Assembly: GCA_964016885.1 (NCBI GenBank)
Contig: OZ024744.1
Coordinates: 7,006,001-7,070,000 of the forward strand
From: Eledone cirrhosa
Taxonomy: Eukaryota
DNA length: 64,000 nt
Direction: 5' to 3'
Position numbers and translations under genes: made by a program
Shown: piece by piece, positions 27,586-62,800 of the stretch
Position numbering within the stretch: position 1 is the first letter of the stretch
Layout: each line of letters begins with the position of its first letter
Notes under the pieces: generated by a model
The model's database searches: none
Seen by the model: only the letters and a program-made list of their open reading frames with translations
What the model was told of the DNA's origin: nothing

Positions 27586-27793
27586 CGTGGTTCACTTCGC
27601 TCCTGTAAGTTTGTTCTATTTTCACTGTTATTCAAAATTTTCTATTGACATTTTGAAATCGTTTTGAAGCTAAGTAAGAACTGGCATACATGATTTCAAA
27701 ACGACATCAAATGTCAATGGAAGATGTTGACTAACAGTGAAGATAGAACAAACTTACAGGAGCGAAGTGAACCACGTCTCGAAAGGCTGAACC

Positions 27794-28428: not shown

Positions 28429-28450
28429 ATAATAATAATAATAATAATAA

Positions 28451-31400: not shown

Positions 31401-32162
31401 GTTAATCGTCCGATAAGACACAGTGCATAGGCGCCGATGCTCCATTTTATTTGGTGGCGGGGGGTGAGGCTGACCCTGTACCCATCTTTCTTTACCATTC
31501 TCTTGGCTTCACTAATTCCTCTTGAGTTACCTGGATTGCTTCGCACTTTTTTGCTGCTCTGGCAAAAGACAGGGTGGTTTTCTTATTCTCATTGTTGTTG
31601 TTGCTGTTGTTGTTATCGTTATTTTTGTTATTGTTATTTTTAGTTTCAGTGGTAGTGGTGGCGTCAGTGGTGTTCGGTGTGGAAGAGTCCATTCTGAGTG
31701 AATCCATTTCGATGTCACGAGATAATTTATTTTTTCTTTTGTTTCTTTTGTCGCTGTGGTGGTGGTGGGGGTGGCGGCTTCAACACCTGCAGTCATTGGT
31801 AATGGCGGGAAATGAATGTCTGCATGAGACAAATTTAAATTATTGCTACTGCTTATATTTTTAGTGTTGGCAAACGTAGTAATATTTACAATGGTGGTGT
31901 TGGTGTGAGGTGTTAGTTTGTGAGGAAGGTGTGACTGTGAGTCGTCCATGATTTTTTAAAAGAAATTTTTGTTTGATAATTATAAAAGTTTAAATTTTGG
32001 GCTCAAGGCCCCAATCTTTTTGAGTGTCCTTATCAGAAAACAATGTATGTGCATTTATATACAGTTAACAATAACAATTTTCCATAAATGGCAATTTTAA
32101 ACAACTGAAAATAACAAACCTTTGCAGAGCTCACGATGATACGATTTACTACGTAGGTCGCC
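28451..32162 (-). mobile_element. Tx1-clade non-LTR element, chimeric/deleted: divergent ORF1 joined to RT, endonuclease missing, frameshifted
   Basis: RT motifs SPGLDG, NFRPITLLN, LDQSKAFD, QGCPLS and YADD; C-terminal CPRC..H..C; ORF1 knuckle CVVCGEGTHLTAFC. The 3' end reads AATAAAGAAAACA-(TTA)n. (AAT)n at both ends. Confidence 0.92.
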
Positions 32163-32221
<59 letters not shown>

Positions 32222-32959: not shown

Positions 32960-35900
32960 GTGGTGATAATGCCACACAAGGGCCAAGTGGGATGGCGGAT
33001 CCACAGATGGCTATGTAACTATACATTCGCCAATCCTCGATAAGAGTGTTTAAATATCGAACATAAACAGTTCGAATAACGGTGAAATGGAGACTAGAAC
33101 GTCATGTGACAGACTCTCACCCAACAGGTGCCCCCTGGCTCAGCAGCAGGAACCTGACTGTCAACCAAATACTGCTGATGTTGGAGGAAGAAGAAGAAGG
33201 AAAGGGGCCAGAACCAACTGGACGAAAGAATTGAATAGAACTGTTATGCAATGCTACCTGAAAAGTAACCCCAAGGAGAGGGGCTACAGGAGACGGATGC
33301 ATAACATCTGGAACGAGATTGGTTTATTTAAATTAGATGAACAAAAATTGGCCGGGCAGGCTCGGGTAATAAGAACTAATGGGTGGTTAAGCGAGCTGGA
33401 ACTGGAGGAACTGAGCAGAGAGAATGGCTTGGAGATGGCGGGTGTGGTATGCCAGACAAGCGAGCCGGTGGGAAATGAAGGTGAGGAGGTCCTGAGAACG
33501 GAGGAACCACCCGAAGCAGACAATGATCTGAATACTGAGATAAATAATACATGGAACAGAGATACGGCCACTGAGGAGATGAATGCTGACGGGCTAGGAC
33601 AAGATTCGGTTGACATCCTAAATTTAGTGGTAGATGAATTAAACAATGATAGTGGGAGACCTATGAACCTAAGATTTGTAGACAGGAAAAAGTTAAAAGA
33701 AACAACAGCTAAGGTAAACAAAGTCATCCCATACCTTGAGGCGAGGAGCCTTCACCAGTGCAACAATATCCTCAAAGCAACAGCAAATACGGTGAGGAAA
33801 CTACTTGGTATAAAAGCGAGAGGAAACAACAGACAAGAAAGAGCAGAGCCGTGGTGGAAGAAGCGACTGAGTGGGCAAATCGGGGAAATGAGAAATGACA
33901 TAGGAAAGCTTGAGTCACTACTGAATGGGACACTAAAAAACATAGGCACTAAAAATAGACTGGAAATAAAATACAAAACTAGGAGTAAAAAGTTAAATAT
34001 TATCATAGAGGAATTGAAGCAACGCATTGTAGCAAAGAGTGCAAAAATCAGGCGATACGAGAACAGAGTCAGTCAGTATAAACAGAACCGCATGTTCGAC
34101 AACAACCAGAAGATGCTGTTTGGACAGCTTGAGGGGAAAGAAAGAGGCAACGACTTGATCCCTGGGGCGGAACAAACTAAAACATTCTGGAGAGGAATAT
34201 GGGAGCAGGATGTTAGACACAATGCCCAGGCAGGGTGGATTGAGACAGTACAGAGGGAGATCGGTGAGCAGGCACAACAACAGACTGATTTGAGTATCAC
34301 AGTTGAAACTCTTAAGGGGCAAGCCAAAAAACTAACCAACTGGAAATCACCAGGCCCAGATGGTGTGCAGGGGTATTGGATTAAACATTTAACATCCCTC
34401 CACCCGAAGCTGACGGCCATGTTCAATGACTGCTTGGTGTCGGGTGAGGTGCCAGAGTGGTTGACAAAAGGTACCACAGTTCTGATAATGAAAGACCGAA
34501 TCAAGGGTAATGATGTTACCAACTATAGACCTATCACATGTCTGCCCGTAATGTGGAAACTGTTGACGAGCATTGTGTCTGAGGAAATCTACCATGACCT
34601 CCACACAAACAACTTGTTACCGGACGAACAGAAAGGATGCCGAAAGAAGTCACGTGGTACAAAGGACCAGTTGCTTATTGATAAGATGGTAATGGGGAAT
34701 TGCAGGAGGAGACACACTGATCTTGCCATGGGATGGATAGACTACAGAAAGGCATTTGACATGGTGCCTCATTCCTGGATCACCAAAAGCCTGGAGATCT
34801 TCAGGGTGGCAGATAACATCAGACAGTTGCTGGGCAGGAGTATGGGGTCCTGGGAGACAGAGTTGACATCAACTGGAGTATCCTTGGGAAGCGTGAAGAT
34901 CAAGAGAGGTATCTTCCAGGGAGATAGCCTGTCCCCTCTGTTGTTTGTCCTTGCCCTGATGCCCTTGACCATTATGCTGCGAAAAGTGAGAGCAGGATAC
35001 AAGTTGGGAAGGGGAGAGCTTACCATCAATCACCTCCTCTTCATGGACGATCTTAAGCTCTTCGGGAAAAGTGAGAAGGAGTTGGATGTGCTTGTTGACA
35101 CTGTCCGTATTTTCAGCAGTGATATATGTATGCAGTTTGGTATTGGTAAATGTGGAGTCATTGTGATGAAGAGGGGTAGGTTGAGCAGAAGTAACGGGAT
35201 CCAGATACCAACAGGTGAGATGATAAAGGAAATTGACTCTGAGGAAGGATACAAGTATTTGGGCGTTCTGGAGGCTGATGGCATAAAGAACAAAAAAATG
35301 AAGGAATTGTTAAGAACTGAATACATTCGGAGAGTAAGGAGCGTATTGAAGTCACATCTAAACAGCAGAAATGCCATAAGCGCAGTAAATTCCCGAGCTG
35401 TGTCTATTATTAGGTACAGTGCGGGAATTCTGAGATGGAATGTTGCTGAACAAAAAGAAATGGATAGGAAGACTAGGAAGCTATTGACTATCTACAACAT
35501 GTTCCACAAGAGGAGTGATGTCGATAGACTCTACCTAAGGAGATCTGAGGGTGGAAGAGGTCTTATCAGCATAGAGGACTGTGTTCAGATGGAGAAAAAC
35601 AACCTATACAAATACGTGACCTATAGTAAGGAGCCAATGCTCAGAACTGTACTGAAGGAGGGGACAGTAGGCCAGGGGATGTCCAAGGAGGAAATAACAT
35701 CAAGGAAGAAGAGCAGCCTTAAGGGAAAATCCCTTCATAGTACCTTCTTTGAGAAAACTGAATTTAGAGATCCACAGACATGGAACTGGTTGAGAAGAGG
35801 AGACCTCAAAAAGGCTACAGAAGGAATGCTAATGGCTGCGCAGGAGCAGGCCCTCAAAACGAAGTGGTTGAAGCACCATATCTACAAGGAGGAGGCTAGC

Positions 35901-36553
35901 CCACTGTGCAGGATCTGTGGAGAGAGAGAGGAGACTGTGGCTCACATTGTGTCCGAGTGTAAACACCTAGCCCAGACCCACTATAAGGGCTGGAGACACG
36001 ATGTGATGGGCAGGGTGATCCACTGGCACCTGTGCAAAGTAAACAATCTACCACATTCTGAGAAATGGTATGAGCATAGGCCAGAGGCGGTGATGGAGAA
36101 CAATCAGGTGAAGGTGCTGTGGGATTTTAGGATACAGACGGACAAAAAACTTGAACACAATAGACCTGACCAGGTGGTTGTGGACAAAGAAAAAAGATCG
36201 TGCCTGATTGTGGATGTGGCCTGCCCGTTCGACACGAGAGTGCAAGAGAAGGAGAGGGAGAAAATTAACCGATACCAGGACCTAAAGTGGGAGGTGAAAA
36301 GGATTTGGAACTGCCATGAAGTCAAAGTGATCCCGATTGTCATAGGCGCACTGGGGACTATCTCCAAAAGTTTCCAGGGATGGTTAAAGAAAATCGGCCC
36401 CTTCACGCTTTTTGGAACGCTTCAAAAGGTATGCTTGCTTGGAACAGCAAGAACCCTCCGATACGTCCTGAATATCTGAGGCTGCAGGTAGTGGCTTGAT
36501 ATTCAATCCAACGGACTTTCCAGTTAACCAACATCAATGACTGAGATTCAAGG
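32960..36553 (+). mobile_element. Family A R4/Dong-like element with complete ORF (5' boundary uncertain, somewhere in 32251-33086)
   Basis: Intact ORF and a ~74-nt 3'UTR ending ...GAGATTCAAGG followed by (AAT)n. There is no second 5' copy to define the start. Confidence 0.85.
33087..36479 (+). CDS. Intact 1130-aa R4/Dong-clade retrotransposon protein (Myb-like N-terminus, RT, CCHC, restriction-like endonuclease), family A
   Basis: N-terminal WTKELN..CY..W..LAGQAR. RT motifs SPGPDG, NYRPITCL, WIDYRKAFD, GIFQGDSLSP, FMDD and YKYLG. CRIC-x8-H-x4-C knuckle, RHD, and PD..D..K of the RLE. Confidence 0.96.
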   Translation: METRTSCDRLSPNRCPLAQQQEPDCQPNTADVGGRRRRKGARTNWTKELNRTVMQCYLKSNPKERGYRRRMHNIWNEIGLFKLDEQKLAGQARVIRTNGWLSELELEELSRENGLEMAGVVCQTSEPVGNEGEEVLRTEEPPEADNDLNTEINNTWNRDTATEEMNADGLGQDSVDILNLVVDELNNDSGRPMNLRFVDRKKLKETTAKVNKVIPYLEARSLHQCNNILKATANTVRKLLGIKARGNNRQERAEPWWKKRLSGQIGEMRNDIGKLESLLNGTLKNIGTKNRLEIKYKTRSKKLNIIIEELKQRIVAKSAKIRRYENRVSQYKQNRMFDNNQKMLFGQLEGKERGNDLIPGAEQTKTFWRGIWEQDVRHNAQAGWIETVQREIGEQAQQQTDLSITVETLKGQAKKLTNWKSPGPDGVQGYWIKHLTSLHPKLTAMFNDCLVSGEVPEWLTKGTTVLIMKDRIKGNDVTNYRPITCLPVMWKLLTSIVSEEIYHDLHTNNLLPDEQKGCRKKSRGTKDQLLIDKMVMGNCRRRHTDLAMGWIDYRKAFDMVPHSWITKSLEIFRVADNIRQLLGRSMGSWETELTSTGVSLGSVKIKRGIFQGDSLSPLLFVLALMPLTIMLRKVRAGYKLGRGELTINHLLFMDDLKLFGKSEKELDVLVDTVRIFSSDICMQFGIGKCGVIVMKRGRLSRSNGIQIPTGEMIKEIDSEEGYKYLGVLEADGIKNKKMKELLRTEYIRRVRSVLKSHLNSRNAISAVNSRAVSIIRYSAGILRWNVAEQKEMDRKTRKLLTIYNMFHKRSDVDRLYLRRSEGGRGLISIEDCVQMEKNNLYKYVTYSKEPMLRTVLKEGTVGQGMSKEEITSRKKSSLKGKSLHSTFFEKTEFRDPQTWNWLRRGDLKKATEGMLMAAQEQALKTKWLKHHIYKEEASPLCRICGEREETVAHIVSECKHLAQTHYKGWRHDVMGRVIHWHLCKVNNLPHSEKWYEHRPEAVMENNQVKVLWDFRIQTDKKLEHNRPDQVVVDKEKRSCLIVDVACPFDTRVQEKEREKINRYQDLKWEVKRIWNCHEVKVIPIVIGALGTISKSFQGWLKKIGPFTLFGTLQKVCLLGTARTLRYVLNI

Positions 36554-36579: not shown

Positions 36580-37095
36580 CATCTCAATCTTGTGGAACTT
36601 TAGCATCCAAACAGACCGAAAAATAGATGCAAATAGACCTGATATAATACTGAAGGACTTTAAAAAGAGGGTATGCCTGCTAATTGATATGTCCGTTCCA
36701 ATAGACAAGAATGTATCTATAAAAATATTTGAAAAATTGAGCAAGTATAAAGATCCGGAGACAGAAATTGGAAAAAAATGTGGAAATTGAGAACTAAAAC
36801 AATACCAGTGGTTGTAGGCGCTCTAGGAATGATACCTAAGGGGTCTAATGATTACTTATCGCAAATCCCAGGAAACCCGTGTATAGGAGAAATACAAAAG
36901 ATAGTACTAATGGAAACTGCCCATATACTAAGGAAGATTCTGTCAATATAAGTACATCACAATTCTAAACACCTAAAGATGCATGTGTGTGTATGTATGT
37001 TCTTTCTTGAACATAGCGGACCTTGTTGTCTCTTGAGGTCACTGGTTGTGACTTGGTGATAACTCGTATGAACATAAAGCAAGATAAATGAAACT
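36580..37095 (+). mobile_element. Family B 3' fragment (end of RLE plus 3'UTR), frameshifted
   Basis: ISILWNFSIQTDRKIDANRPD; matches 39418-39933. (AAT)n on both sides. Confidence 0.95.
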
Positions 37096-37098
37096 ATA

Positions 37099-37148
<50 letters not shown>

Positions 37149-37151
37149 TTA
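37096..37151. repeat. (AAT)n junction
   Basis: Read directly. Confidence 0.97.
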
Positions 37152-39935
37152 ATGAAAAGAAAATACAGTATAAAATCAACAAGTGACATAGACATGCTGA
37201 TAGAAATAATCAAGCAAAAAGTGTCGGCCAAAGCTGCTCGTATAAGGCGCTTTGAAAAACGATCTAGATTCTATAAGGACAATAATATGTTCAAAAACAA
37301 CCAAAGAAACTTCTACAGAAAAATTGGTAATTCAACAATAACTGCTAAATCAATACCACCCAAGGAGGAAGTGCAAGAATTCTGTGAAAAATTCTGTGCC
37401 GAAGAAAAAGTTCATAATTTACATGCCCCATGGATAGAAAGACAAATGAAAGATACAGCTCACCTTAAGGAACAAATATGGGAAAATATAACAGTTGAAC
37501 AGTTGCGTTTGGCTCTAAGAAAAACCAGCAAATGGAAATCCCCAGGAAAAGACAAAATACCAAATTTTTGGATGAATGCCTTCACAGAGTCTCTTGAGCT
37601 GTTAGCCCAACTTTACAATGAAATAGTTAAGGAGCCAGAAAAGATACCATCATGGCTAGTTAACGGCATTACATTCCTGCTTCCGAAGAATGATGAGACA
37701 AACAATCCCAAAAATTACAGACCGATAACTTGCTTGATCACAATGTATAACATTTTAACATCAGTCCTAACTGAATATACATATGACCACCTAATAACAA
37801 ATGACCTATTTCCCATTGAGCAGAAAGGGTGTAAACGAGGCTCATATGGCTGTAAGGATCAGCTTCTGGTTAACAAAATGATACTGGAAGATTGTCATAA
37901 TAGACACAAAAATCTATCAATTGCTTGGATAGATTATAAAAAAGCATTCGATAGTTTGCCACACAGTTGGATTGAAAAATGTTTAGAGATTTTCAAAATA
38001 TCTCCCGTTGTCAGGAGGTTTTTATCATTCAGTATGAAGACATGGAAAACGACACTCCTTTTGAATAGTGAAACAAAATCACTGGAAGCTGGAGAAGTTA
38101 ATATTAATTGTGGAATTTTTCAGGGTCACTCTTTATCACCGCCTTTATTCTACATCGCACTTATACCATTAAGTAAAATGCTCAATGAAACAAAACATGG
38201 ATATAAAGTCTATGACAAAACCATTAATCACTTGTTCTACATGGATAACCTGAAACTATTTGCAAAAAATGAGGAACAATTGCAAGGGCTATTATCCACT
38301 GTGGAGCAGTTAAGTGATGACATTAAAATGGAGTTTGGACGAGATAAATGCGCCAAAGCAACGTTCACCAGAGGAAAGCTGCTGAAAAGTTCAGACATTA
38401 ATCTTGATCGGGGGAATGTGATAAGAGAACTTGATCAAGAGGAAACTTACAAATATCTAGGTGTTTGTGAAGGAGACGGAATCAAGCACTCGATAATGAG
38501 GGAAAGGATAAGGAAGGAATGTTACCGCAGAGTAAGAGCAATCTTAAGAACGGAATTGAATGCAAGGAATAGGATCGATGCCATAAACACGCTTGCCATA
38601 CCAGTAGTAACCTACAGTTACAATGTCGTCAACTGGTCAAGCACAGAGATCCGTAGGCTCGATACAAAAATTCGAAAATTCTTAACCATGCACAGAATGC
38701 ATCACCCTAAGGCAGATATAGATAGAATATATCTCCCTAGGAAAGAAGGAGGACGTGGGTTAATCCAGTTAGATATTGAGTTGAAAACTGCAACAATTGG
38801 ATTATCTACATATCTAAGGGAATCACATGATTGGATGATCATACTCGTTTTGAAACACAAAAGCATCAAAAGATCATACTCCATTACAAAAGATGCACAA
38901 ATATACAGTAATGGACTACAAATTTCAGAAGTCCCATTTACTGCTGAAATGGAAAACACAGAAAAAGCAAAGCAGGTAAAAGTAACTGCAAGGAAAGAAC
39001 TGCTACACAAACTGGCTAAGAAATGGCAAGAAAAGCCTCTGTATGGAAAATACCCAGAGCGAGCTAACAATCCTGATGTTGACAAAACCTTAACCCATCA
39101 GTGGTTGGCATCCTCTGGACTGAAATCGGAGACTGAAGGACTGATTATATCAGCACAAGATCAGTGTCTGCCAACAAAAAGTTACCAAGCCAACATAATA
39201 AAAAATGGATGCAGCCCATTATGCCGTGTATGCAAAAAACAACCAGAGACCATTGACCATATAATTTCAATGCGCAGTCCTATAGCTCCAACCGAATACC
39301 TAAACAGGCATGACAGAGCTGCACAATACATACATTGGATAATGTGTAAGCATTTTGACCTGCCCCATCAAAAGAATTGGTGGGAGCATCAACCAGCTCC
39401 CATACTTGAAAAAGATCACATCTCAATCTTGTGGAACTTTAGCATCCAAACAGACCGAAAAATAGATGCAAATAGACCTGATATAATATTGAAGGACTTT
39501 AAAAAGAGGGTATGCCTGCTAATTGATATGTCCGTTCCAATAGACAAGAATGTATCTATAAAAACATTTGAAAAATTGAGCAAGTATAAGGACCTGGAGA
39601 TAGAAATTGGAAAAATGTGGAAATTGAGAACTAAAACAATACCAGTGGTTGTAGGCGCTCTAGGAATGATACCTAAGGGGTCTAATGATTACTTATCGCA
39701 AATCCCAGGAAACCCGCGTATAGGGGAAATACAAAAGATAGTACTAATGGGAACTGCCCATATACTAAGGAAGATTCTGTCAATATAAGTACATCACAAG
39801 TCTAAACACCTAAAGATGCATGTGTGTGTATGTATGTTCTTTCTTGAACATAGCGGACCTTGTTGTCTCTTGAGGTCACTGGTTGTGACTTGGTGATAAC
39901 TCGTATGAACATAAAGCAAGATAAATGCAACTGTA
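37152..39935 (+). pseudogene. Family B 5'-truncated copy; open 878-aa frame (37152..39788) but probably inactive
   Basis: RT and RLE motifs are present, but with FYMDN (DD>DN), QGHSLSP (D>H) and the last knuckle Cys changed to Arg. The ATG is created by the AAT junction; the native codon is TTG (cf. 61290). Confidence 0.9.
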
Positions 39936-40584
39936 ACATCACAAGTCTAAACACCTAAAGATGCATATGTGTGTATGTGTGTTCTCAATTTTACAAATAT
40001 CTGAGCATTAATCTCATCACTCCAGCTTAGATGCGGATCAAATAATATTATATAATCGCATTTATAAAAAAGAATCTGTGTTTTTTAATACAAAAAACAT
40101 CACAGAAAACGTTTTCTTTCAAATCAGATTCCCGTTAGTCACATAACTGCGGAGGTAAGATTTCTTACAACTGTGGCTTATCAATTAACTAAAATTTATT
40201 GTCTTATCTATTTAGAATCCATCATTTATCTCCTCAGATGATAGACATGATAATACTCAGTCACTATCATCAGATGACTGTTAACACCGAGATATTACCG
40301 AACTTCCACCAATGAATACATTTTCTCTCACCACATTGATCTAACGATTGAGAACTAAAATATATTTCCAGCTGTTGTTCATCAATTTAAGTGAAACATA
40401 GACTCTAGATAACACAAGAAAGTATGCCAGCATCTTCTCTACTGAGATATGGAAAAATATTAGATATAAAAGTAAACCTGCAACAAATAATTTCAATCTA
40501 CAACGAATGCTCGTTGTAATTATATATATAAACATATCTACTTGACCACGAATTGGGAAAGTTGTCATGATGTTGAATAGAAAA

Positions 40585-45480: not shown

Positions 45481-45574
45481 TGAGTGTTGGTGTGTGCCCT
45501 TATTGCCAATTATCTCTTTTGGGAAAAGAAAAGAAAGTAATAATAATAGTAACAATATTAATAATTATAATAAT

Positions 45575-46684
45575 AACAAAAATAAATGGATAGGAAGACT
45601 AGGAAGCTATTGACTATCTACAACATGTTCCACAAGAGGAGTGATGTCGATAGACTCTACTTAAGGAGATCTGAAGGTGGAAGAGGTCTTATCAGCATAG
45701 AGGACTATGTTCAGATGGAGAAAAAAAACCTACACAAATACGTGACTGATAGTAAGGAGCTAATTCTCAGAATTGTACGGAAGGAGAGGACAATAGACCA
45801 GGGGATGTCCAAGGAGGAAATAACAACAAGGAGAAAGAGCAGCCTTAATGAAAAATCCCTTCATAGTACCTTCTTTGAGAAAACTGAATTCATAGATCCA
45901 TAGACATGGAACTGGTTGAAAAGAGGAGACCTTAAAAAGGCTACAGAAGGAATGCTAATGGCTGCGCAAGAGCAGGCCCTCAAAACGAAGTGGTTCAAAC
46001 ACCCTATTTACAAGGAGGAGGCTAGCCCACTGTGCAGGATCTGTGGAGAGAGAGAGGGGAGACTGTGGCTCACATTGTTTCCGAGTGTAAACACCTATCC
46101 CAGACTCACTATAAGAGCTGGAGACATGATGTGATGGGCAGGGTGATCCACTGGCACTTATGAAAAGTAAACAATTTACCACATTCTGAGAAGTGGTATG
46201 AGCATAAGCCAGAGTCGGTGAAAGAAAACGATCAGGTGAAGGTGCTGTGGGATTTTAGGATACAGACGGACAAGAAACTGGAACACAATAGACCTGACCT
46301 GGTGGTTTTGCACAAGGAAAAAAGTTCGTGCCTGATTGTGGATGTGGCCTGCCCATTCGACACGAGAGTGCAAGAGAAGGAGAGGGAGAAAATTAACCGA
46401 TACCAGGACTTAAAGTGGGAGGCAAAAAGGATTTGGAACTGCCATGAAGTCAAAGTGGTCCTGATTGTCATAGGCGCACTAGGTACTATCTCAAAGATTT
46501 TCCAGGGATGGTTAAAGAAAATTGGCCCCGCCACGCTTTTTGGAACGCTTCAAAAGGCATGCTTGCTGGGAACAGCAAGAACCCTCCGATACGTCCTGAA
46601 TATCTGAGGCTGCAGGTAGTGGCTCGATATTCATTTCAACACACTTTCCAGTTAACTAACATCAATGACTGAGACTCAAAGAAC
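45575..46684 (+). mobile_element. Family A' 5'-truncated copy, with stops and a frameshift
   Basis: MDRKTRKLL..RSEGGRGL through RYVLNI and the 3'UTR. Degenerate AAT tract at 45538-45575 and (AAT)n at 46685-46708. Confidence 0.93.
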
Positions 46685-46708
46685 AATAATAATAATAATA
46701 ATAATAAT

Positions 46709-47119
46709 GATTTCTTTATTGGCCACAAGGGTTGACATCAAGAAAAACATTACAGACGGTACAGGACGGTATGATGATGATGTGGCTTTTGTGCGTGTAA
46801 ATATTTTTATTATTTATATAAGAAAAGAAAAAAGACATAAAACATATATATATATAAACAATAAAATGAAAATTGAAACCATGAAAAATTTCCCAATAGG
46901 GGGAAACCTACGAGGGTTACTCATGGCGAAAACCACACAAAAGACCACGGCCACCCTGACTATCAGGGCAAGCGCCCTGTCTCAATTTGTCCATCTCTTA
47001 AACTACAGACGTATATTCAGAGTGGTTCACTCGGACCATTCTCGCTACATTCACCCACCTTTCAAGAAACTTGCTAGAAAGCAGCACTTGCCTCTCCACC
47101 TGATTTTCCTCTTCACTTC
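46709..47119 (-). mobile_element. Divergent Tx1 family 3' fragment
   Basis: The 3' end CCTTGTGGCCAATAAAGAAATCA-(TTA)n and the ORF2 tail KIRVERQVLSSKFLERWV are homologous to, but distinct from, the other Tx1 copies. (AAT)n on both sides. Confidence 0.85.
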
Positions 47120-47192
<73 letters not shown>

Positions 47193-47193
<1 letters not shown>

Positions 47194-47953: not shown

Positions 47954-47974
47954 AATAATAATAATAATAATAAT

Positions 47975-48385
47975 GATTTCTTTATTGGCCACAAGGGTTG
48001 ACATCAAGAAAAACATTACAGACGGTACAGGACGGTATGATGATGATGTGGCTTTTGTGCGTGTAAATATTTTTATTATTTATATAAGAAAAGAAAAAAG
48101 ACATAAAACATATATATATATAAACAATAAAATGAAAATTGAAACCATGAAAAATTTCCCAATAGGGGGAAACCTACGAGGGTTACTCATGGCGAAAACT
48201 ACACAAAAGACCACGGCCACCCTGACTATCAGGGCAAGCGCCCTGTCTCAATTTGTCCATCTCTTAAACTACAGACGTATATTCAGAGTGGTTCACTCGG
48301 ACCATTCTCGCTACATTCACCCACCTTTCAAGAAACTTGCTAGAAAGCAGCACTTGCCTCTCCACCTGATTTTCCTCTTCACTTC
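47975..48385 (-). mobile_element. Duplicate of the divergent Tx1 3' fragment
   Basis: Nearly identical to 46709-47119, with the same breakpoints. Confidence 0.88.
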
Positions 48386-48455
<70 letters not shown>

Positions 48456-48456
<1 letters not shown>

Positions 48457-49211
48457 GGAGACCTCAAAAAGGCTACAGAAGGAATGCTAATGGCTGCGCA
48501 GGAGCAGGCCCTCAAAACGAAGTGGTTGAAGCACCATATCTACAAGGAGGAAGCTAGCCCACTGTGCAGGATCTGTGGAGAGAGAGAGGAGACTGTGGCT
48601 CACATTGTGTCCGAGTGTAAACACCTAGCCCAGACCCACTATAAGGGCTGGAGACACGATGTGATGGGCAGGGTGATCCACTGGCACCTGTGCAAAGTAA
48701 ACAATCTACCACATTCTGAGAAATGGTATGAGCATAGGCCAGAGGCGGTGATGGAGAACAATCAGGTGAAGGTGCTGTGGGATTTTAGGATACAGACGGA
48801 CAAAAAACTGGAACACAATAGACCTGACCTGGTGGTTGTGGACAAAGAAAAAAGATCGTGCCTGATTGTGGATGTGGCCTGCCCGTTCGACACGAGAGTG
48901 CAAGAGAAGGAGAGGGAGAAAATTAACCGATACCAGGACCTAAAGTGGCAGGTGAAAAGAATTTGGAACTGCCATGAAGTCAAAGTGATTCCGATTGTCA
49001 TAGGCGCACTGGGGACTATCTCCAAAAGTTTCCAGGGATGGTTAAAGAAAATCGGCCCCTTCACGCTTTTTGGAACGCTTCAAAAGGCATGCTTGCTTGG
49101 AACAGCAAGAACCCTCCGATACGTCCTGAATATCTGAGGCTGCAGGTAGTGGCTTGATATTCAATCCAACGGACTTTCCAGTTAACCAACATCAATGACT
49201 GAGATTCAAGG
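48456..49211 (+). mobile_element. Family A 3' fragment (CCHC, RLE and 3'UTR)
   Basis: ORF 48484..49137 is nearly identical to the C-terminus of 33087..36479. Confidence 0.95.
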
Positions 49212-52729: not shown

Positions 52730-53744
52730 GGAGATCTGAGGGTGGAAGAGGTCTTATCAGCATAGAGGACTGTGTTCAGATGGAGAAAAACAACCTATAC
52801 AAATACGTGACCTATAGTAAGGAGCCAATGCTCAGAGCTGTACTGAAGGAGGGGACAGTAGGCCAGGGGATGTCCAGGGAGGAAATAACATCAAGGAGGA
52901 AGAGCAGCCTTAAGGGAAAACCCCTTCATAGTACCTTCTTTGAGAAAACTGAATTTAGAGATCCACAGACATGGAACTGGTTGAGAAGAGGAGACCTCAA
53001 AAAGGCTACAGAAGGAATGCTAATGGCTGCGCAGGAGCAGGCCCTCAAAACGAAGTGGTTGAAGCAAAATATCTACAAGGAGGACGCCAGCCCACTGTGC
53101 AGGATCTGTGGAGAGAGAGAGGAGACTGTGGCTCACATTGTGTCCGAGTGTAAACACCTAGCCCAGACCCACTATAAGGGCTGGAGACACGATGTGATGG
53201 GCAGGGTGATCCACTGGCACCTGTGCAAAGTAAACAATCTACCACATTCTGAGAAATGGTATGAGCATAGGCCAGAGGCGGTGATGGAGAACAATCAGGT
53301 GAAGGTGCTGTGGGATTTTAGGATACAGACGGACAAAAAACTGGAACACAATAGACCTGACCTGGTGGTTGTGGACAAAGAAAAAAGATCGTGCCTGATT
53401 GTGGATGTGGCCTGCCCGTTCGACACGAGAGTGCAAGAGAAGGAGAGGGAGAAAATTAACCGATACCAGGACCTAAAGTGGGAGGTGAAAAGGATTTGGA
53501 ACTGCCATGAAGTCAAAGTGATCCCGATTGTCATAGGCGCACTGGGGACTATCTCCAAAAGTTTCCAGGGATGGTTAAAGAAAATCGGCCCCTTCACGCT
53601 TTTTGGAACGCTTCAAAAGGCATGCTTGCTTGGAACAGCAAGAACCCTCCGATACGTCCTGAATATCTGAGGCTGCAGGTAGTGGCTTGATATTCAATCC
53701 AACGGACTTTCCAGTTAACCAACATCAATGACTGAGATTCAAGG
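52727..53744 (+). mobile_element. Family A 3' fragment, open frame to the stop at 53670
   Basis: RRSEGGRGL..CRIC..RHD..RPDL..RYVLNI plus 3'UTR. TAA microhomology at the 5' junction. Confidence 0.95.
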
Positions 53745-54020
53745 AATAACAATAACAATAATAATAATAATAATAATGTTTTCTTTATTAACCACAAGGG
53801 TTCACATAAAGTAGACATTAAGGACAGTACAGGACAATACAGGACGGTACAAATGGGCATTTCTGCGTGTAAAAAACAAAAATAGGATGTAACAAAAAAT
53901 AACAATGAAAAATTCCCCAATAGGGGAGAGACTTCGGAGGGACATTTGTGGAGAAAGCCCAGTAAAAGGCCACAATGACCCTGACCACCAGGGCAAGTGC
54001 CCTCTCCCAGTTTTCCACCT

Positions 54021-57000
54021 TTAATTTACAGATATATACTCAGAGTAGGCCCATTCACTCGGGCCATTCTTGCCTCTCACCCATCTTTCAACAAAATGCT
54101 GGGAAGAGAACACTTCCCTCTCTACTCTGATTTTCCTTTTCAAATGAAATTTGAAATAGTCAATCAGAGCATCACCGAAGAGGTAAGTGCTCGTCTTCAG
54201 CCCTTTCAAACGTGTCCACCATACTATCTCTTTCGACATGGCCACCAGACAGATAAAAACTGCCTGCCCTTCCCGGCTAAAGGAGGAGGGAGGGGCAATC
54301 CTCACGAAGGACTCAGATGATAGCCGGATCCGTCCTAAACGCGACAGCAGGTGTTCGACATAAACCCACAAGTCAGCAATTTTCGGACACTGGACGAGTG
54401 CGTGCAGGACGGTTTCGTCACCCTGCGTGCATCTCGGACATGCCCGGCTGACGGCACCTCCATGCCTGTAGAGTTTATGCCGAACCGGCAAGGCTCCTCG
54501 GTAGCACTGCCAGGCCAGAGATTTCTGGAAGTTGTCCATAGGCCCTGGCCCGAAAGTTCTTCCGAAGAGATTGGCTAGTTGATTTTCGTCGACGCCTAGA
54601 GTTTCCCCAAGTACGTCGTCGCTCTTCCCCTCCACTAATCCTCTATAGAACGCCGAGGCGGAGTTTCCACCGATCACATTGCCCGATTGGTCGAGGGCTG
54701 TGAGCGCCTGAAGACATTCCAGTCTCCAGACGCTCCCTCTCGGTCTTCGCTTGACCCAGGACTGCAGCTCCGTGAAGGAAACGAGCTGGGGAAATACGTG
54801 TCTAGCAAACGACGACGACACCTGATCACCGTCGAGGAAGAGGTGGAGATGTCGTAGCCTGAGCGCGTGTCTGCGCATCATCAGCCACGGCATTCCCAGC
54901 CCTTCACGTAGCGGGTGTTGACAACAGATTGACCGCCTGACCATCGGAGCGCGTCCCTTCCACAAAAAGCGAAAGAGCAAACGCTCCAGCGCAGTCAGGC
55001 GAGGCTTAGGACAAGGTACGACGGTCAGGCGGTAGCAGATGACAGACGCGATGTACACGTTAGCCCCCTCCGCTCGACCTTTCAGGGATAGCTTCCTCTC
55101 CGCCCATTTCTGGGTGAGAGAAGCCACCCTGCTCGTCACCTCGTCCCAGTTTTTGTGCGTCTGGAGGTCCGGACCGAACCAGAACCCTAGCAATTTAACC
55201 GGTCCGTCCGTCCAGCGTCCGACGACGCTGTTGGACGGCATGGACCTGCCTCTCCAGGTGCCGAGCTGCAGGCCCACTGACTTTTCCTGGTTGATCATTG
55301 CTCCTGTCACCGCTTCGTATTCTCTTAGTGTAGTGCCGATCGCCTCGATGTGTTTGGCGTTCGACACCACTACGGTGACATCGTCGGCATATGCTGACAC
55401 GGATCTTCCGCATCCTAGTTCGCGCGGGATGCTCCTCAACGTCTCCAGTTTGTGCAGTAATGGCTCGAGAGTCCATACGTACAAGAGGGACGAGAGGGGA
55501 CACCCTTGGCGGACCGAGCCCATGATGTTGAACGGTTCCGACAGGTGACCGTTCACTCCCACCACAGAGCAGATGTCGCTGTGCATGCCAGTGATCCAGC
55601 CTCTGAAGACGGGCCCAAAGCCAGCCGGCCTCAGGACTGCCGCTAGGTAACGATGGTCGATCCTATCGAAAGCTTTCGACTGATCTAAATTGATCAAGGA
55701 CCCACCCGTGCCAGGTTCCCTAGCTACCCTCTCTACGACGTATCGCATGAGGTGGAGGTTGTCGTGGATGGATCTGTCGGGAATGGCGCATGTCTGCGCC
55801 TCTCCCACCAGACCACCAACGACAAGCGCCAACCTCTTTGCCAGCACCTTGGCCAAAATCTTGAACTCCGTGTTTAGCAGAGTTATGGGCCTGAAATTAT
55901 CTATGTTATCCCCCTTGTTCGGATCCTTTCTCAGCAGTGCCACCGCTCTTCGGCTCACAGAACTGGGAATTCTACCGTTCTGTTGCCAGTTGCAGTAGAC
56001 GCCCGCCAAGAGGCCTCCTAACAAGTCTGGCATCTGTACGTAAAGTTCATAGGGCAGACCATCCAAACCAGGCGATTTACCCCTTGTGCAACTAGTCATT
56101 GCATCCCGTACTTCAGCGGTTGTTATCGGCTTTTCGCAACACTCCGCCTCAGTGGCCGAAAGCCGCGGCAGTCCGTCGAGGTAGACACTAAAGTCCATCC
56201 CTCGATCCGGCCCGCCACTGCCCCCGAACAGTTGAGCGAAGTGTCGCTGAAAAGCTTCACACATTTGCCCGGGATCGAGTAGCATGCGCTCGTCGTGGTC
56301 CACCAAAGACCGGATCGTGGCTTTGTTGCCACGACGCGCCTCCGCCACTCGAGCCCATTGAACGGCTTTCGTCCCCTCGTGTCTGAGAGCACGCACCCTT
56401 GCTCTGACAACGCAGCCTTCGTGCTTTGCATTGAAGAATTTGTCAAGGGCCAATTTCTCCGCAAGCACGTCGGTCGCAATGCCTTTGCTAAGCGCCTCGT
56501 CTAATTTTCAAACTAGTTCTCCCTCTGCTCTATTTTTCTCTATTGCTAAAGCCTTACTAAACCTAATCGATTCTATTCTAATCGCTCTTTACAGAGCAAA
56601 CCACCACCTGTTGTTGACGATGGCCCCCGTCAACGCCCACTTAACTAGTTCGCTAATCCGGTCTCTGTAGGCCTTGCGCGCTGGTAAGGACGCGTTTAGC
56701 TTCCAGTAGCCGGGTCCTCGTCTATGAAGCCTATCTAAGTCAAGCACACAGATCACGAATTTGTGGTCCGTGTAGCTGACTATCTTGAATTGTGGACAGC
56801 CTATGCTAGACCTATCTATTTCCCTACAAAATACTCTATCTAGATATGATCTGGATGACCCTATGCGATTTGTCCAACTCCATATTGGCACATTCGGGAA
56901 ATACAATCGGTACCTGTCAGACAGTTCAAAACGCCTGACCAGGTTGGTGAGGCTCTTGCACCCTCCACCCATATCCGCTAATCCCACACAGTCCCAGCGT

Positions 57001-57431
57001 GCATCTAAGATCCCGTTCCAGTCGCCCACTAACACTAAAGAGCGGGACGTTCCAAGAAAGGTCTCCAGACGCCGGAAGAAATCAGGCCGCCCTGCTCCTG
57101 TCGGGGCATAGACGGTCACTAGCCTGAAAGCTTGCCTGTCTCAGCTGGTCACGTCCAGCACCACCAACTTACCCTCTGGATCCAGGAAGATGGCCCGTAT
57201 GGCGAGATCCAAACCTCTCCGAAAAAGCACAGCAACTCCTCCCCCCGATCCAGGACGGCTGGGAGATGCGTACACATCGTAGCCGCCGAAGATCCGTGCT
57301 TCGGAGATTCTGGTCTCGCTGATGGCCACTACATCTATGTTTAGTGACCTGAGGTCGTTGAGCAGGTGACCCTGCTTCCATGACGACCCCAAGCCACGCG
57401 CATTTATGCTGCCTATTCTGAGTGAGGTCAT
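54021..57431 (-). pseudogene. Tx1 ORF2: APE endonuclease, RT and CCHC, with three in-frame stops (57141, 56589, 56508)
   Basis: APE: MTSLRIGSINARGL..AISET..VYAP..GDWNG..SYLDRVF..TDH. RT: SPGLDG, NFRPITLLN, LDQSKAFD, VRQGCPLS, YADD. Knuckle CPRC-x8-H-x4-C. All pieces share one frame. Confidence 0.93.
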
Positions 57432-57433
57432 GT

Positions 57434-59579
57434 TTAAAATAGAGTGGAAAAGATGGGAAAGACCACTTTCCGTACTTTTTGTAGAGGAGGGATGGTTTTT
57501 ACATCCCTTTTCACTTGATCGTCTGGTGAAGGGACCGTTGAATCGTCCCATCGGCTGGTCATCGGCTCTTCTATGAGTATGTCCGAATATACTCTTCGGT
57601 TGATAGTTCCTCCTAGGTCTCTGAAATCACCAACTGCGTTGGGGAATTTCGTTTTAATGTTTGTGTATTGTTTCTGTGCTATTTTTAGCAGTTTTATGTT
57701 AGTTGGCGTTTTGATTGGTGCTGGTATTATGTAGTCGTGTTGTGAAATGTCTGTGCGTTCAATTATGTAAGTCATTAGTTTCTTATTGTGTGTATTTATT
57801 GCCGTGCATTTGTTTTTCTGGGGGTGGGGTGTGGTTCTGCTATTTTCTTGTCGTTTTTGCTGGGTGTGTGTGTTTTGTTGTTGTGTTTGCGATGTTGGTG
57901 CTTGTGGTGTTGAAGGTGTTGTTGTTGTTGGCGCTGGGGTTGTCGCCGGTGGTGATGGTGGTGCTAGTGTGGGTGGTGATGGTGTTGGTGGTGTTGCTGC
58001 TGTGAGTCTCTTTGCAGTAGACTTTACCCTTTTTTCATTTCTTTCCTCCCTTTTCAAAGGCGACGATGCGCTGCTTCTGCGTTTGTGCCTTCTTACGACA
58101 TTTTGCCATCCCTCTCCCACCTCACACTCCATGTCTGATTCTGTGAGGTCGGGGAGGGGTACCAGCTCCACTCTTTCACTTGTTGTTGTTGGTGATGTTT
58201 GCACTGGAGTCTCTGTTGCAGCTGCATTTGGTATTGCTGTTGTTGTTGTTAATACTTCCACTGCTGCTGCTGTTTTTGATTTCCGTGGCGTGGGTATGGG
58301 TGCCACGGACCTATCGTTCCTGGTTGCCGCTTGTCCTGTTGCTGGTAGCCGTCGAGCCGGTTTCGGAAGGAGGGGGGTTTTCTCCTTTCTCAAGGTCTTC
58401 TCGTTGCAGAAGGCCCTGAGGTGAGTCTTCGATCCACAGCGAAAGCATTTCGGGCGTTTTCCCTCAACATTTATGGGCAGTTGAGTGCCGTTATCGAAGT
58501 CTATCACATCCGGGATAGCTTCGATGCACTCCTGGTTGGTTTGGATTAACATCTCAATGGAGGTGACGACCCAATCTTCTCTTACTTTTTTCTGTACTTG
58601 CAGTACAGTTGTTTTGTCCTCGATTCCGACGAGGACAGACGCGGCCAGCCAAGAAGGGGCCATCCCGGGGTGGCACGTGGGTCAGTTTGACCCTCACAAT
58701 TTTTTGCCCGCAGTAGGAGGGCACCAACACCATTTCCTCGCTCCTTAGGGTCACTACGGATTGAACCTTTGCCTCCTGGGGTGTGGCAAAAAGTACGTCT
58801 ACGGTGGCATATTTCTTGCCTCGGGTGATGTGTGTTTTCCGCTTCCACACAGACCCCAAGGCTTTTTGTATTTGAGCCTCTGTGGCTCTTTCCACCCTAC
58901 GGGATTTTGTACTTACTGTACGGTACGTGACCGTACAGTGCTGTTGGGTTTCAAAAAATGTTTCCGCTGCCTTGCAGATTGCTCGGTGTCCTGTTTTTGT
59001 CACCATCTTCTTCGCTTCCTCTAATTCCTCATTTGTTATGAGGATTGTTTCCAGGTTCTTCGCGATACCTGCAAACGAGATTGGTTTTTCTTTGCTGCTG
59101 TTGTTGTTGTTGTTGTCGTCAGAGCTGCTGTTATTTTTGTTGTTGCTGCAGGTACTACGACTACTGCCGCCGCCGCTGTTGCTGTGGTTGTTGTTGTTGT
59201 TGCTGCTGCTAATGCTGCTGTTGTTTATGCTGCTGCTGATGCTGTTGCGGCTGCTTCTGTTGTTTTCATTGTCACTGTTGCTGTTGTTATTACGGCTGCT
59301 ACTGCTATTATTCCTGACGTCAGACGAATGAAATGGGTTTTCGTATTTCCCGCACACCTGTTTCGTCGTCGTTGTCGTCGTCGTCGTCGTGGAGAAATCT
59401 TGCACGCTTTGCACGAGACTTTTCTTTTCTGTCGTCGCTTGCGAAAGAGAAGGGAGGGAGAGAGACACATTTAAAGAAGGGAGGGAGAGAGACAATCTTC
59501 TCTCTGCTGTAGTGACGATTGAGGAAGAAGAAGACGGAATGAGTGGGAGTGACTTATGCAAATTCTTTTTCGTAGCCAT
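57434..59579 (-). pseudogene. Tx1 ORF1 (gag-like: low-complexity N-terminus, RRM-like region, CCHC knuckle), one frameshift near 58668
   Basis: MATKK at 59579. ORF pieces 58554..59654 and 57434..58663 overlap at VPP/GMAP. Knuckle CFRCGSKTHLRAFC. Confidence 0.88.
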
Positions 59580-59797
59580 GTTGTTTTTTTTTTGTTTAAA
59601 ATAAATATTGGGCACAAAACCCCAATAAGCTGTTATTTCACCCCGAAGGGCCAAATAACGGGCAGAAAGACCCCTCTCACGAGGAGGAGGGTGTTTTTGT
59701 CTATAAGTTGGTTAAAGTTTTAAACAATTTACAAATGTTATAGCGGTCAAAATTTACAATACCTTACAGAGCCGAGCCTCCGTCAACCATAGCATTC

Positions 59798-59840
59798 AAT
59801 AATAATAATAATAATAATTATTATTATTATTATTATTATT
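59798..59840. repeat. Inverted microsatellite (AAT)n-(ATT)n, perfect 40-bp palindrome at 59798-59837
   Basis: Read directly; centre AA|TT at 59817/59818. Confidence 0.97.
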
Positions 59841-62800
59841 GACCACCGGCCAAACGTCAACAACTATGGCACTTCTGGCTCCCCCTTTCCTCACCAACAA
59901 TATAAAAAGCCCCAGCACCACCTCCGACATAGCCAACAACAATAACAGGCAACTTCAGCAAAAAGTATATTATATTATTGTAATGCACTGGGTAATTGCT
60001 GGCCTTGGGCCTGGAGTGGAGACAATTATTAATAATTTCATTCGTAAGCCACGCAATGCTCACATTAAGGAACCACTCATGATAATAACAATTTAAAAAA
60101 ACAACATAAAAGAAAACCCCGTGACCAAGAAATACCTGGATGGCCGCCGAGGGGAATAGCCGTGTCTCTAGGGGAGAACGACCCCTCTAGTCTTGCTTGA
60201 CACTCGTTCTAGAAGTGGTAACACGAAATGATTACTCCTTGGCGGATAAGGATAAAACGCGACAAAATAAAGTAAATGACTAATGATAAAATCTCATACC
60301 GGATCGGCCGTCACCCGGGTCAAAAAGGGCCGCGTCCCTCAGAGAGGAACCAGACTGGGGTCGAAAAATCAGCTAATGGTTCAAACCTTCCCATCACTTC
60401 GGAGCTGGAGACCTCCCATAACCGGAATACTCCTACTGTTGGCCCTCCATGCTCACCACCAAGAAATCCAAAGAAAAAGAGAGAAAAATGCTCAAGGGAA
60501 GATAATAAAGAAGTCCTTGAGGCTTTCTACACTGCCATGTACTACCCATCAAATACATCGAATACAGAACAGACATATATCAACTGGAAAAAGAAACATC
60601 CCGAAAACAGAGGCTATATTGACAGTAACAAACTAGCCAATATACGAAGAAATATTGTAAAAAAAAAGTTACTAACTGATATAGAAATTGATCAGATCAA
60701 GCTATTAGCACAAAGTCAGCGAAGGGAAAATGAAACATGTTTCAGTGAAAACGAGGTAAATTGTAACACTTCGAATCCCAGGGTTGGGGCGGAATCACTG
60801 GCAACAGAACAAATTAAAGAAAGGATCGAAAAAGTGGAGGGAGTGCATGCTCAAGATGAAACTCCAAATGAAAATAATGAGATCGTAAATCATAAAGAAA
60901 TGAATGAGAATGAACTTGCCAACTTGAAGGATGAAATTATGATCGAATGGATGAAAATGAAAGAATCTGACATGGAGCAACGAGACACCCTCCCTAAGAT
61001 CCAGAACTCCAAACAGAACCAAAAGATAATACACAAGACTAACATAATTCTCAAAAACATTATCATCACAAAGAAACTAAACATTACAGATTTAAATCAT
61101 CTCTATTATGCATCGGCTAAAGTCACCACTGACTTATGTGGAGTGAAGATGAAAAAACAAAGGAATTCCCACAAGAAATCTACTTGGAAAGAGAACATCA
61201 ATCGCCAAATAAACCTTCTCCGATCTGACATAGAAATTTTAACAAACCATAAAGTAGGTGAACATGTTAAACAAACTAAACTTAGAAAATTGAAAAGAAA
61301 GTACAGTATAAAATCAACAAGTGATATAGACATGCTGATAGAAATAATCAAGCAAAAAGTGTCGGCCAAAGCTGCTCGTATAAGGCGCTTTGAAAAACGA
61401 TCTAGATTCTATAAGGACAATAATATGTTCAAAAACAATCAAAGAAACTTCTACAGAAAAATTGGTAAGTCAACAATAACTGCTAAATCGATACCACCCA
61501 AGGAGGAAGTGCAAGAATTCTGGGAAAAGATCTGGGCCGAAGAAAAAGTCCATAACATACATGCCCCATGGACAGACAATCAAATGAAAGATACAGCTCA
61601 CCTTGAAGAACAAATATGGGAAAATATAAGAGTTGAACAGTTGCGCTTGGCTCTAAGAAAAACTAGCAAATGGAAATCACCAGGAAAAGACAAATACAAA
61701 ATGTTTGGATAAATGCCTTCACAGAGTCTCATGAGCTGTTAGCCCAACTTTACAATGAAATAGTTAAGGAGCCAGAAAAGATACCACCATGGCTAGTTAA
61801 CAGCATTACATTCCTGCTTCCGAACATCAGTCCTAACTGAATATACATATGACCACCTAATAACAAATGACCTATTTCCCATTGAGCAGAAAGGGTGTAA
61901 ACGAGGCTCATATGGCTGTAAGGATCAGCTTCTGGTTAACAAAATGATACTGGAAGATTGTCATAATAGACACAAAAATCTATCAATTGCTTGGATAGAT
62001 TATAAAAAAGCATTCGATAGTTTGCCACACAGTTGGATTGAAAAATGTTTAGAGATTTTCAAAATATCCTCCGTTGTCAGGAGGTTTTTATCATTCAGTA
62101 TGAAGACATGGAAAACGACACTCCTTTTGAATAGTGAAACAAAATCACTGGAAGCTGGAGAAGTTAATATTAATTGTGGAATTTTTCAGGGTGACTCTTT
62201 ATCACCGCTTTTATTCTGCATCGCAATTATACCATTAAGTAAAATGCTCAATGAAACAAAACATGGATATAAAGTCTATGACAAAACCATGAATCACTTG
62301 TTCTACATGGATGACCTGAAACTTTTGCAAAAAATGATGAACAATTGCAAGGGCTATTATCCACTGTGGAACAGTTCAGTGATGACATTAAAATGGAGTT
62401 TGGACTAGATAAATGCGCCAAAGCAACGTTCACCAGAGGAAAGCTGCTGAAGAGTTCAGACATTAATCTTGATCGGGGGAACGTGATAAGAGAACTTGAT
62501 CAAGAAAAAACTTACAAATATCTAGGTGTTTGTGAAGGAGACGGAATCAAGCACTCGACAATGAGGGAAAGGATAAGGAAGGAATGTTACCGCAGAGTCA
62601 GAGCAATCTTAAGAACGGAATTGAATGCAAGGAATAGGATCGATGCCATAAACACGCTTGCCATACCAGTAGTAACCTACAGTTACAATGTCATCAACTG
62701 GTCAAGCACAGAGATCCGTAAACTCGATACAAAAATTCGAAAATTCTTAACCATGCACAGAATGCATCACCCTAAGGCAGATACAGATAGAATATATCTC

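Follow-up and report, generated by a model that had tools for sequence, protein, structure and literature searches.

A Tx1-type LINE of the octopod Eledone cirrhosa probably inserts into (AAT)n/(ATT)n repeats with constant orientation and register, likely by means of a T-A nick made by its APE endonuclease and priming of its transcript at the very end of the element. The window analysed is a stretch of 64,000 nucleotides (assembly GCA_964016885.1, contig OZ024744.1, positions 7,006,001 to 7,070,000), within which the flank evidence comes from one 38-kb cluster chosen for its appearance. The best reading of this one cluster is that a lineage of octopod Tx1 elements targets T-A steps of the repeat, a habit independent of that of the fish elements Kibi and Koshi. 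The specificity for (TTA)n put forward in the original prediction holds for all five independent insertions in the cluster, and is demonstrated solely inside it.

The best preserved member, copy A, is a near-intact full-length element of 6,020 bp on the minus strand (53778..59797), its last base being 53778 and not 53777 as first given. It begins with a 5'UTR of 218 bp (59580..59797, minus) whose homology to that of copy B is seen in an alignment score of 115.5, shuffled sequences giving 67.4 +/- 8.6 and reaching that score in 0/300 cases. ORF1 (57434..59579, minus) comprises 714 codons when a one-base frameshift near 58671 is discounted, and contigs without the extra base are present in 4/4 of the sequencing runs examined. 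A Pfam search with this ORF1 gave no match, and a CX2CX4HX4C knuckle was recognised in it by eye, a gag-like CCHC knuckle in ORF1 being a feature of the Tx1 clade. ORF2 (54021..57431, minus; 1136 codons) starts 2 nt past the ORF1 stop and encodes an APE endonuclease, a reverse transcriptase (RT) and a zf-RVT domain (PF03372 E 4e-12, PF00078 E 5e-26 and PF13966 E 2e-7 for the read-through translation), with the catalytic motifs of both endonuclease and RT found in the element. Its anatomy is that of the L1 group, namely two ORFs, the second with an N-terminal APE, an RT and a C-terminal zinc-binding region. The damage originally counted, three stops and one frameshift, was correctly identified (the stops lie at ORF2 codons 97, 281 and 308, positions 57141, 56589 and 56508), but a 2-bp indel near 54073 that alters the last ~20 residues of ORF2 must be added, and this is probably inherited, since it is common to copy A and the copy at 28452.

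The 3'UTR of copy A (53778..54020, minus) lacks an A-tail and carries AATAAA at 53784-53789, six bases from the end. It is followed by an (AAT)n tract with AAC variants (53745..53777, plus) that separates it from the 3' end of a Dong element, and on the other side copy A is flanked by (AAT)7 and then an inverted (ATT)n tract (59798..59841, plus). No stable conserved hairpin was found in the terminal 103 nt of the element (z +1.1 and -0.6); the region directly past the ORF2 stop gave fold z values of -1.3 and -2.6. An RNA-gene target is not indicated, because neither an Rfam search of window positions 24400-64000 nor a tRNA search of the window returned a match.

Six further copies, all on the minus strand, accompany copy A. 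Copy B (28452..32162) belongs to the same 3' family, has a divergent ORF1 and 5'UTR, and lies between (AAT)n flanks at 28429-28451 and 32163-32221. Taken at first as a second full-length copy, it in fact lacks a large internal segment at about 30787. Copy C4 (49242..50926) is 5'-truncated with (AAT)n on both sides, and C5 (50966..52658) is its duplicate, having a common truncation point and 97.7% likeness, with no synonymous excess between the two (pN/pS 0.75, p 0.29). Copy D1 (46709..47119), likewise 5'-truncated between (AAT)n tracts, represents a second 3' family (72-73% nt to A), and D2 (47975..48385) is a tandem duplicate of it (99.8%). Copy E (27223..27793) is an ORF1 fragment of a third type that carries a MITE and has lost its 3' end; its 5' side adjoins (AAT)21 at 27794-27858. 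The copies were originally treated as separate events, and once the two duplicate pairs are collapsed, the independent insertions number five and the independent 3' junctions four. Local duplication does not account for all of them: the 4.5-6% divergence among A, B and C4 shows an excess of synonymous changes (pN/pS 0.29-0.50, p 0.003 to 5e-6), which indicates different source elements and leads us to reject the proposal that all copies are duplicates. The predicted divergence of ORF1 and the two 3' families are both confirmed, the ORF1s being only 33-53% alike in aa over the aligned parts and the two 3' families 72-73% alike in nt; three ORF1 types and both 3' families occupy one kind of site.

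The junctions are uniform. Read on the element strand, the 3' end is AATAAA-GAAAAC/ATT in four copies and AATAAA-GAAATC/ATT in two (the slash marking the join), so that the reported endings with constant repeat phase and no A-run are found in 6/6 copies with a 3' end; the 3' tract of copy 50966 contains a single ATT>GTT change. The 5' ends, also said to abut the repeat, do so in 7/7 copies, truncated ones included, and adjoin (ATT)n of 21-73 bp in one polarity. The join is ATT/G in the copies that keep a 5'UTR (59797, 32162), and the truncated copies fit this register if 1-3 nt of microhomology are allowed (observed at 50926/52658 and 47119/48385, presumed at 27793); nick positions within the repeat are ambiguous by 1-2 nt. 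Since an element-made 3' tail cannot supply a repeat on the 5' side, where it is present in truncated copies at three truncation points and in the two 5'UTR copies, the 5' flanks support insertion into a pre-existing repeat and contradict an element-made tail combined with random insertion, which we reject.

Plus-strand (AAT)>=5 tracts make up 660/39,506 non-satellite bases (1.7%) and are touched by 13/13 element ends, a contrast that describes a selected cluster and is not a genome-wide statistic. Other AT-rich repeats in the window (AT, ATAC, ATCT) bear no copy. A working criterion for sequence-specific Tx1 elements is that >20% of flanks be of one type, according to the available text of PMC4494074; within the window, 5/5 independent insertions have flanks that exceed this value. 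Material from outside the window showed no insertion of this lineage together with its flank. Viral and metagenome contigs contained no match to the 3'-end pattern, and among the loose contig ends of the lineage that were inspected (21 of 4,571, in contigs from four of the 24 sequencing runs listed) none was informative on the target. Contig X6 (record 25) extends 42 letters beyond the last aligned place at the 3' end. Of 147 homologous protein fragments none opens with a translated ATT run, a test blind to such runs as those ORFs begin at methionine.

A point absent from the original prediction is that the Tx1 copies lie among LINEs of opposite orientation, two families (A and B) that we assign by name to the Dong/R4 clade. 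Family A is represented by an element with an open 1141-aa ORF containing an RT (33054..36553, plus), which ends in (AAT)n and has at its C-terminus a CCHC motif and a PD-(D/E)xK-like region, both recognised by eye. Four 5'-truncated family A copies or variants, all on the plus strand, lie tail-to-tail with Tx1 copies: 52730..53744 with copy A (99.4% to the intact Dong across the last 494 bp), 48457..49211 with C4, a variant at 45575..46684 with D1 (its duplicated part at 47194-47953) and a variant at 27859..28428 with copy B. Family B, 39% aa to family A, is found at 37092..39939 (plus), with further pieces at 26120-27223, 36580-37095 and 60072-63969. The Dong/R4 anatomy, a single ORF with a C-terminal restriction-like endonuclease, fits these neighbours and not the Tx1-type element. 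The TAA microsatellite is the published target of Dong in the available text of PMC3812793.

The absence of poly(A), which had been taken as a mark of the family, is real but is not peculiar to it. A sister Tx1 clade, represented by 19 loci (L001-L019) in animal contigs (G001) and joined to the element with SH-aLRT 100, has an ORF2 40-42% identical to that of the element and terminates in AATAAA with 0-1 extra A followed by non-repeat sequence in 21/21 junction types, with (ATT)n after the 3' end in 0/21. Its members form head-to-tail arrays with short non-repeat spacers and locus-specific flanks; ORF1 and 5'UTR differ between subfamilies, and ORF1 matches PF00098 (E 1e-5). An Rfam search of 11 of the 19 loci gave no match, and an Atlas search with the sister protein P0008 returned generic names only. 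The idea that a missing poly(A) defines the ATT-inserted family is therefore rejected, the tail-less end being common to this clade.

The affinity to Tx1 originally proposed is upheld by P0004, a relative (76% identical), which scores 289-296 bits against six fish-type proteins, one of them named YTX2, and 174 bits against human L1 ORF2p at the same Z. Two of the fish proteins, YTX2 and a Tetraodon pol-like protein, score 289-290 bits, although these reference names are automatic annotations and a third TX1-named protein gives a partial match of 109 bits. The Tetraodon protein (P0275, Q76IM5) may, we assume, belong to the Kibi/Koshi series. Among solved structures P0004 matches L1 ORF2p best (E 3e-50), with R2 at E 4e-24. 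In quick trees, whose references included neither curated Tx1 elements nor mammalian L1, the element groups with invertebrate sequences (SH-aLRT 96), outside the group of fish Tx1-named proteins (98), so that on this comparison its microsatellite targeting likely arose separately from that of fish Tx1. Contigs of the lineage are very numerous (43,798 and 48,073 in two sequencing runs) and it has many degraded old relatives, in agreement with the old radiation that had been suggested. In protein alignment, genome contigs yielded only the sister clade, metagenome contigs nothing related, and viral contigs a single weak locus that is unrelated.

As to mechanism, the first nick would fall at AAT^AAT on the plus strand of the window and the second at ATT^ATT on the other strand, both being T-A steps like the L1 nick, and any target duplication would be concealed by the repeat. 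Dong/R4 elements may enter the tract from its opposite strand, and each insertion would leave repeat on both sides, giving an alternating chain later enlarged by local duplications. For the missing tail there are two sub-models. According to the one that we slightly favour, transcription would continue into the target and the RNA would be cut 10-30 nt past AAUAAA, i.e. within AUU repeats, which would pair with the nicked AAT primer so that poly(A) is skipped. In the other, suggested by the sister clade, RT would begin without pairing where a poly(A) tail starts; that clade, tail-less before non-repeat sequence, shows that repeat pairing is not needed for tail loss, which counts against the read-through sub-model. 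In human L1, priming by RT is best with the final four bases of the primer paired to the RNA (PMC3649969). With poly(A) an AAT primer could pair through a single T, with AUU repeats along its whole length. A more elaborate scheme, in which a hitherto undescribed Tx1 lineage of octopods has convergently adopted the Dong target, shares it from the opposite strand, builds self-renewing chains, takes its register from read-through AUU pairing and receives a U-rich RNA-cleavage signal from the target, is possible but rather doubtful.

Three other explanations compete with insertion guided by the endonuclease. The endonuclease could be loosely T-A specific and the AUU tail of the RNA could itself pair with nicked AAT, making the preference RNA-guided rather than protein-encoded, and precise initiation by the Drosophila I factor reportedly needs UAA repeats. 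This would cover orientation, register and missing A-tail in one step, yet the predicted endonuclease hairpin loop, whose position we have presumed in each protein, is alike in the element and an Argonauta relative and unlike that of the sister clade, which is suggestive only. Primer-template pairing does matter for L1 (PMC3649969), but for other site-specific LINEs the available text of PMC4494074 names the endonuclease as the chief determinant, and we give RNA guidance little probability. Less probable again is a local pile-up, in which a weak AT-rich preference meets a tolerated hotspot whose main AT-rich sites are AAT, with mixed flanks genome-wide. In its favour, there is a single cluster with at least two internal duplications, a lineage so abundant and rich in old degraded relatives could form clusters without strict specificity, and flanks in the sister clade are locus-specific; against it stand the vacant AT, ATAC and ATCT repeats, the contact of every element end with AAT in one polarity, and the agreement of two 3' families to the base.

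The true target might instead be the 3' tail of Dong A, the repeat being merely part of the site, as in a transposon-targeting Tx1 such as Tx1L or Tx1-Mar. Transposon targeting is common among Tx1, and in 4/4 cases the distance between an independent 3' end and that of a Dong A copy is 23-33 bp, always in tail-to-tail arrangement. However, the Dongs next to A and C4 match each other at 99.4% and the intact Dong at 98.8-99.4%, while 49 differences over about 1,690 bp are private to copy A, which also has three stops, so the Dongs look younger than the adjoining Tx1 copies. This young look could also result from gene conversion or a crossover within the last 100 bp, and the order of insertion is indeterminable for B and D; even so, we regard a Dong-tail target as very improbable and retain endonuclease-led insertion into the repeat.

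Microsatellite targeting by Tx1 elements is published for TC, TTC, TTCC and TTTC in the available text of PMC4494074, where Kibi (TC), Koshi (TTC) and the crocodilian (TTCC)n/(TTTC)n elements are, like the present one, Tx1-type APE-RT LINEs in microsatellites; Kibi and Koshi differ from it in their TC/TTC targets, its own flanks being AAT/ATT. The repeat is instead that given for Dong of Bombyx mori, DongAg and DongBg of the R4 clade, whose published target is TAA (available text of PMC3812793). Dong has one ORF with a restriction-like endonuclease, an RT 24-25% identical to that of the element and the opposite orientation, and would prime on the other strand. For Octopus vulgaris, the available main text of PMC13282606, in which the word 'target' does not occur, catalogues 80 L1-Tx1 consensus families, 13 of which were recently active and account for 421 insertions, together with 51 Dong-R4 families, and the element's lineage is probably already among octopus repeat libraries such as this one. 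We found no TAA/ATT-targeting Tx1 in the papers searched, although fuller lists of Tx1 targets may name one. Because Tx1 elements are known to change their choice of target frequently, a new one is to be expected and is no surprise. If the present reading is true, an APE-type element uses the TAA repeat for which the literature found names Dong alone, and two unrelated nucleases on one target would form a natural comparison case. The sister clade, tail-less too and with other flanks, would complete a clean pair for asking whether endonuclease or RNA-DNA pairing sets the site, and the finding would bear on the accumulation of LINEs in microsatellite clusters of octopus genomes.

The Tx1 element lying in an AAT/ATT repeat is a real feature of the window. 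Copy A (53778-59797, minus strand) is a near-intact, full-length Tx1-type LINE comprising a 5'UTR of 218 bp, an ORF1 of 714 codons (not counting a single extra base near 58671), an ORF2 of 1136 codons and a 3'UTR of 243 bp. APE, RT and zf-RVT domains are recognised in the ORF2, which is interrupted by stops at codons 97, 281 and 308; with the extra ORF1 base these make up the three stops and one frameshift of the original prediction. Contigs without the extra base are present in all four sequencing runs examined, so it is not a general lesion. The ORF1 stop and ORF2 start (57429-57436) are separated by 2 nt, a spacing which suggests that their translation may be coupled. Also on the minus strand are copies B (28452-32162), C4 (49242-50926) with its duplicate C5 (50966-52658), D1 (46709-47119), D2 (47975-48385) and E (27223-27793). 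A 2-bp indel near 54073, which changes the ORF2 C-terminus of copy A in comparison with five homologues, is common to A and B and absent from C and D.

From about 26100 to the window end, LINE pieces form a chain with (AAT)n tracts between them, and plus-strand AAT tracts of at least five units occupy 1.7% of the window outside the 48-bp satellite (1-24494, about 511 copies). This satellite has an apparent higher-order period of about 9.5 kb, an ORF pattern recurring at 342, 9883 and 18321. Within the ORF1 fragment of copy E lies a MITE-like palindrome (27575-27786), about 210 bp long and 84% self-complementary, whose terminal inverted repeats measure about 36 bp. A third APE-RT LINE, degraded and possibly RTE-like, occupies 43316-45450 (minus strand); imperfect TAA repeats lie 5' of it (45538-45585), and AC and TAA repeats lie past its 3' side. 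The 5' flank of copy A (59798-59841) is an inverted AAT/ATT junction, and the 230 bp beyond it (59841-60071), which occur once in the window and have minus-strand AAT repeats at their end, are perhaps a short retrocopy.

On the element strand, AATAAA-GAAA(A/T)C passes directly into the ATT repeat with no A-run in all six copies that retain their 3' end, as had been proposed in the form of GAAAACA or GAAATCA ends in constant phase with (TTA)n. The 5' ends adjoin (ATT)n in seven of seven cases (tracts of 21-73 bp), so that what had been claimed for full-length ends extends to truncated ones. The junction is ATT followed by G in the two copies with a 5'UTR, and the truncated copies are compatible with the same register if 1-3 nt of microhomology are allowed. 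Truncated copies with three different breakpoints still have the repeat at their 5' side, where an element-made tail could not have put it; the tract is therefore target DNA and not a product of the element. Copies A, B and C4 have an excess of synonymous differences (pN/pS 0.29-0.50 across about 1,380 coding bases), the pattern that separate active sources would leave. C4 and C5 share a truncation point and lack this excess (pN/pS 0.75, p 0.29), and D1 and D2 are 99.8% alike, which reduces the independent insertions to five (A, B, C, D and E), with four independent 3' junctions and five 5' junctions.

All Tx1 copies are antisense to plus-strand neighbours whose single long ORF encodes RT and, at the C-terminus, a CCHC and PD-(D/E)xK-like region (motifs identified by eye); we take these neighbours to be Dong/R4 elements, which form two families, 39% alike. 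The Dong A copy at 33054-36553 has a fully open 1141-aa ORF and, with neighbours 99% alike, is a candidate recently active element. Three truncated Dong A copies start with GGAGA directly after the repeat, two of them sharing one truncation point, and 45924-48456 is a tandem duplication whose second unit opens as one Dong A variant and goes on as another, as unequal crossing-over of Dong copies would produce. A Dong A tail is found 23-33 bp from each of the four independent Tx1 3' ends, and Tx1 might be thought to target Dong elements rather than the microsatellite itself. However, the Dongs beside A and C4, the only places where order can be inferred, are 99.4% alike mutually and about 99% identical to the intact copy, against 49 private differences within about 1,690 bp of copy A. 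They thus likely inserted after the Tx1 copies, an order more consistent with two elements sharing a microsatellite target than with targeting of Dong, although conversion could imitate their apparent youth and an AAC-interrupted tract common to both points to a common origin. According to one review, Dong targets TAA microsatellites in silkworm, mosquito and snail, while Kibi targets TC and Koshi TTC (PMC3812793).

Among named homologues, the closest to the copy A ORF2 comes from Argonauta hians (66% identity), and a quick RT tree groups the element with two Argonauta proteins and four others (SH-aLRT 99), which points to an octopod as the probable host. Compared with six fish-type proteins, among them one annotated YTX2, a relative 76% identical to the element reaches 289-296 bits; its score against human L1 ORF2p is 174. 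This supports a Tx1 rather than an L1 affiliation, the reference names being annotations and not a curated set. Between 23 and 63% of the element's sampled words are present in thirteen sequencing runs from ten organisms. Matching contigs number 43,798 and 48,073 in two of the four runs examined, where summed contig depth, which is not a copy number, is greater for ORF2 than for ORF1; degraded relatives (45-75% identity) are many. Excerpts of published work describe expansion of both L1-Tx1 and Dong-R4 in coleoids (PMC8967140) and 80 L1-Tx1 consensus families, 13 recently active, in O. vulgaris (PMC13282606). Tx1 targets are given in part of another paper as Tx1D, U2, TC, TTC, TTCC, TTTC, Mariner, Harbinger and LTR elements, its legend adding satellites, U5 and 5S (PMC4494074), and the accessible portions of PMC4640811, PMC3747384, PMC9115989 and PMC2881922 name no others. 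Literature searches, which did not take in Repbase, Dfam and the 2004 survey, found no TAA-targeting Tx1.

A scan of genome contigs returned 19 loci, all in animal-like contigs that are contamination of one bacterial MAG (G001). The bin as a whole has 77 ORF2 matches, mostly intact, in head-to-tail arrays of 6.4-6.8-kb units; the ORF2 is 40-42% identical to that of the element, and quick trees place this clade as sister to the octopod group (SH-aLRT 100). Its ORF1 and 5'UTR vary between subfamilies. Short spacers separate the units; in at least one array the spacer (18 bp) also lies on either side of the array as a whole, resembling a target duplication, and a similar 11-bp spacer recurs on three contigs. 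A motif search over loci L001-L033 gave 21 distinct 3' junction types, many array-internal and not independent, none of which had an A-tail (0-1 extra A) or was followed by (ATT)n. The proposed lack of poly(A) thus stands for the 3' ends in the window and is not specific to this family.

Judging from the junctions, the first nick would fall at AAT^AAT and the second at ATT^ATT, both T-A steps, with an ambiguity of 1-2 nt. The AATAAA lies six bases from the element end and RNA cleavage usually occurs 10-30 nt past this signal, so that a read-through RNA would be cut inside the repeat and end in AUU units plus poly(A). An AAT primer could form four terminal pairs with AUU repeats, not with poly(A), and human L1 RT is described as priming best when four terminal bases are paired (PMC3649969). 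Such read-through priming is slightly favoured as the cause of the missing tail, although the sister clade loses the tail without any repeat. The predicted endonuclease hairpin loop of the element resembles that of Argonauta and differs in the sisters, a comparison that is no more than suggestive. Searches beyond the window showed no insertion of this lineage together with its flank, so that genome-wide specificity for the repeat is inferred from one cluster. Since the sister clade is tail-less and without (ATT)n, the lack of a tail characterises the lineage at large, and the AAT target does not.
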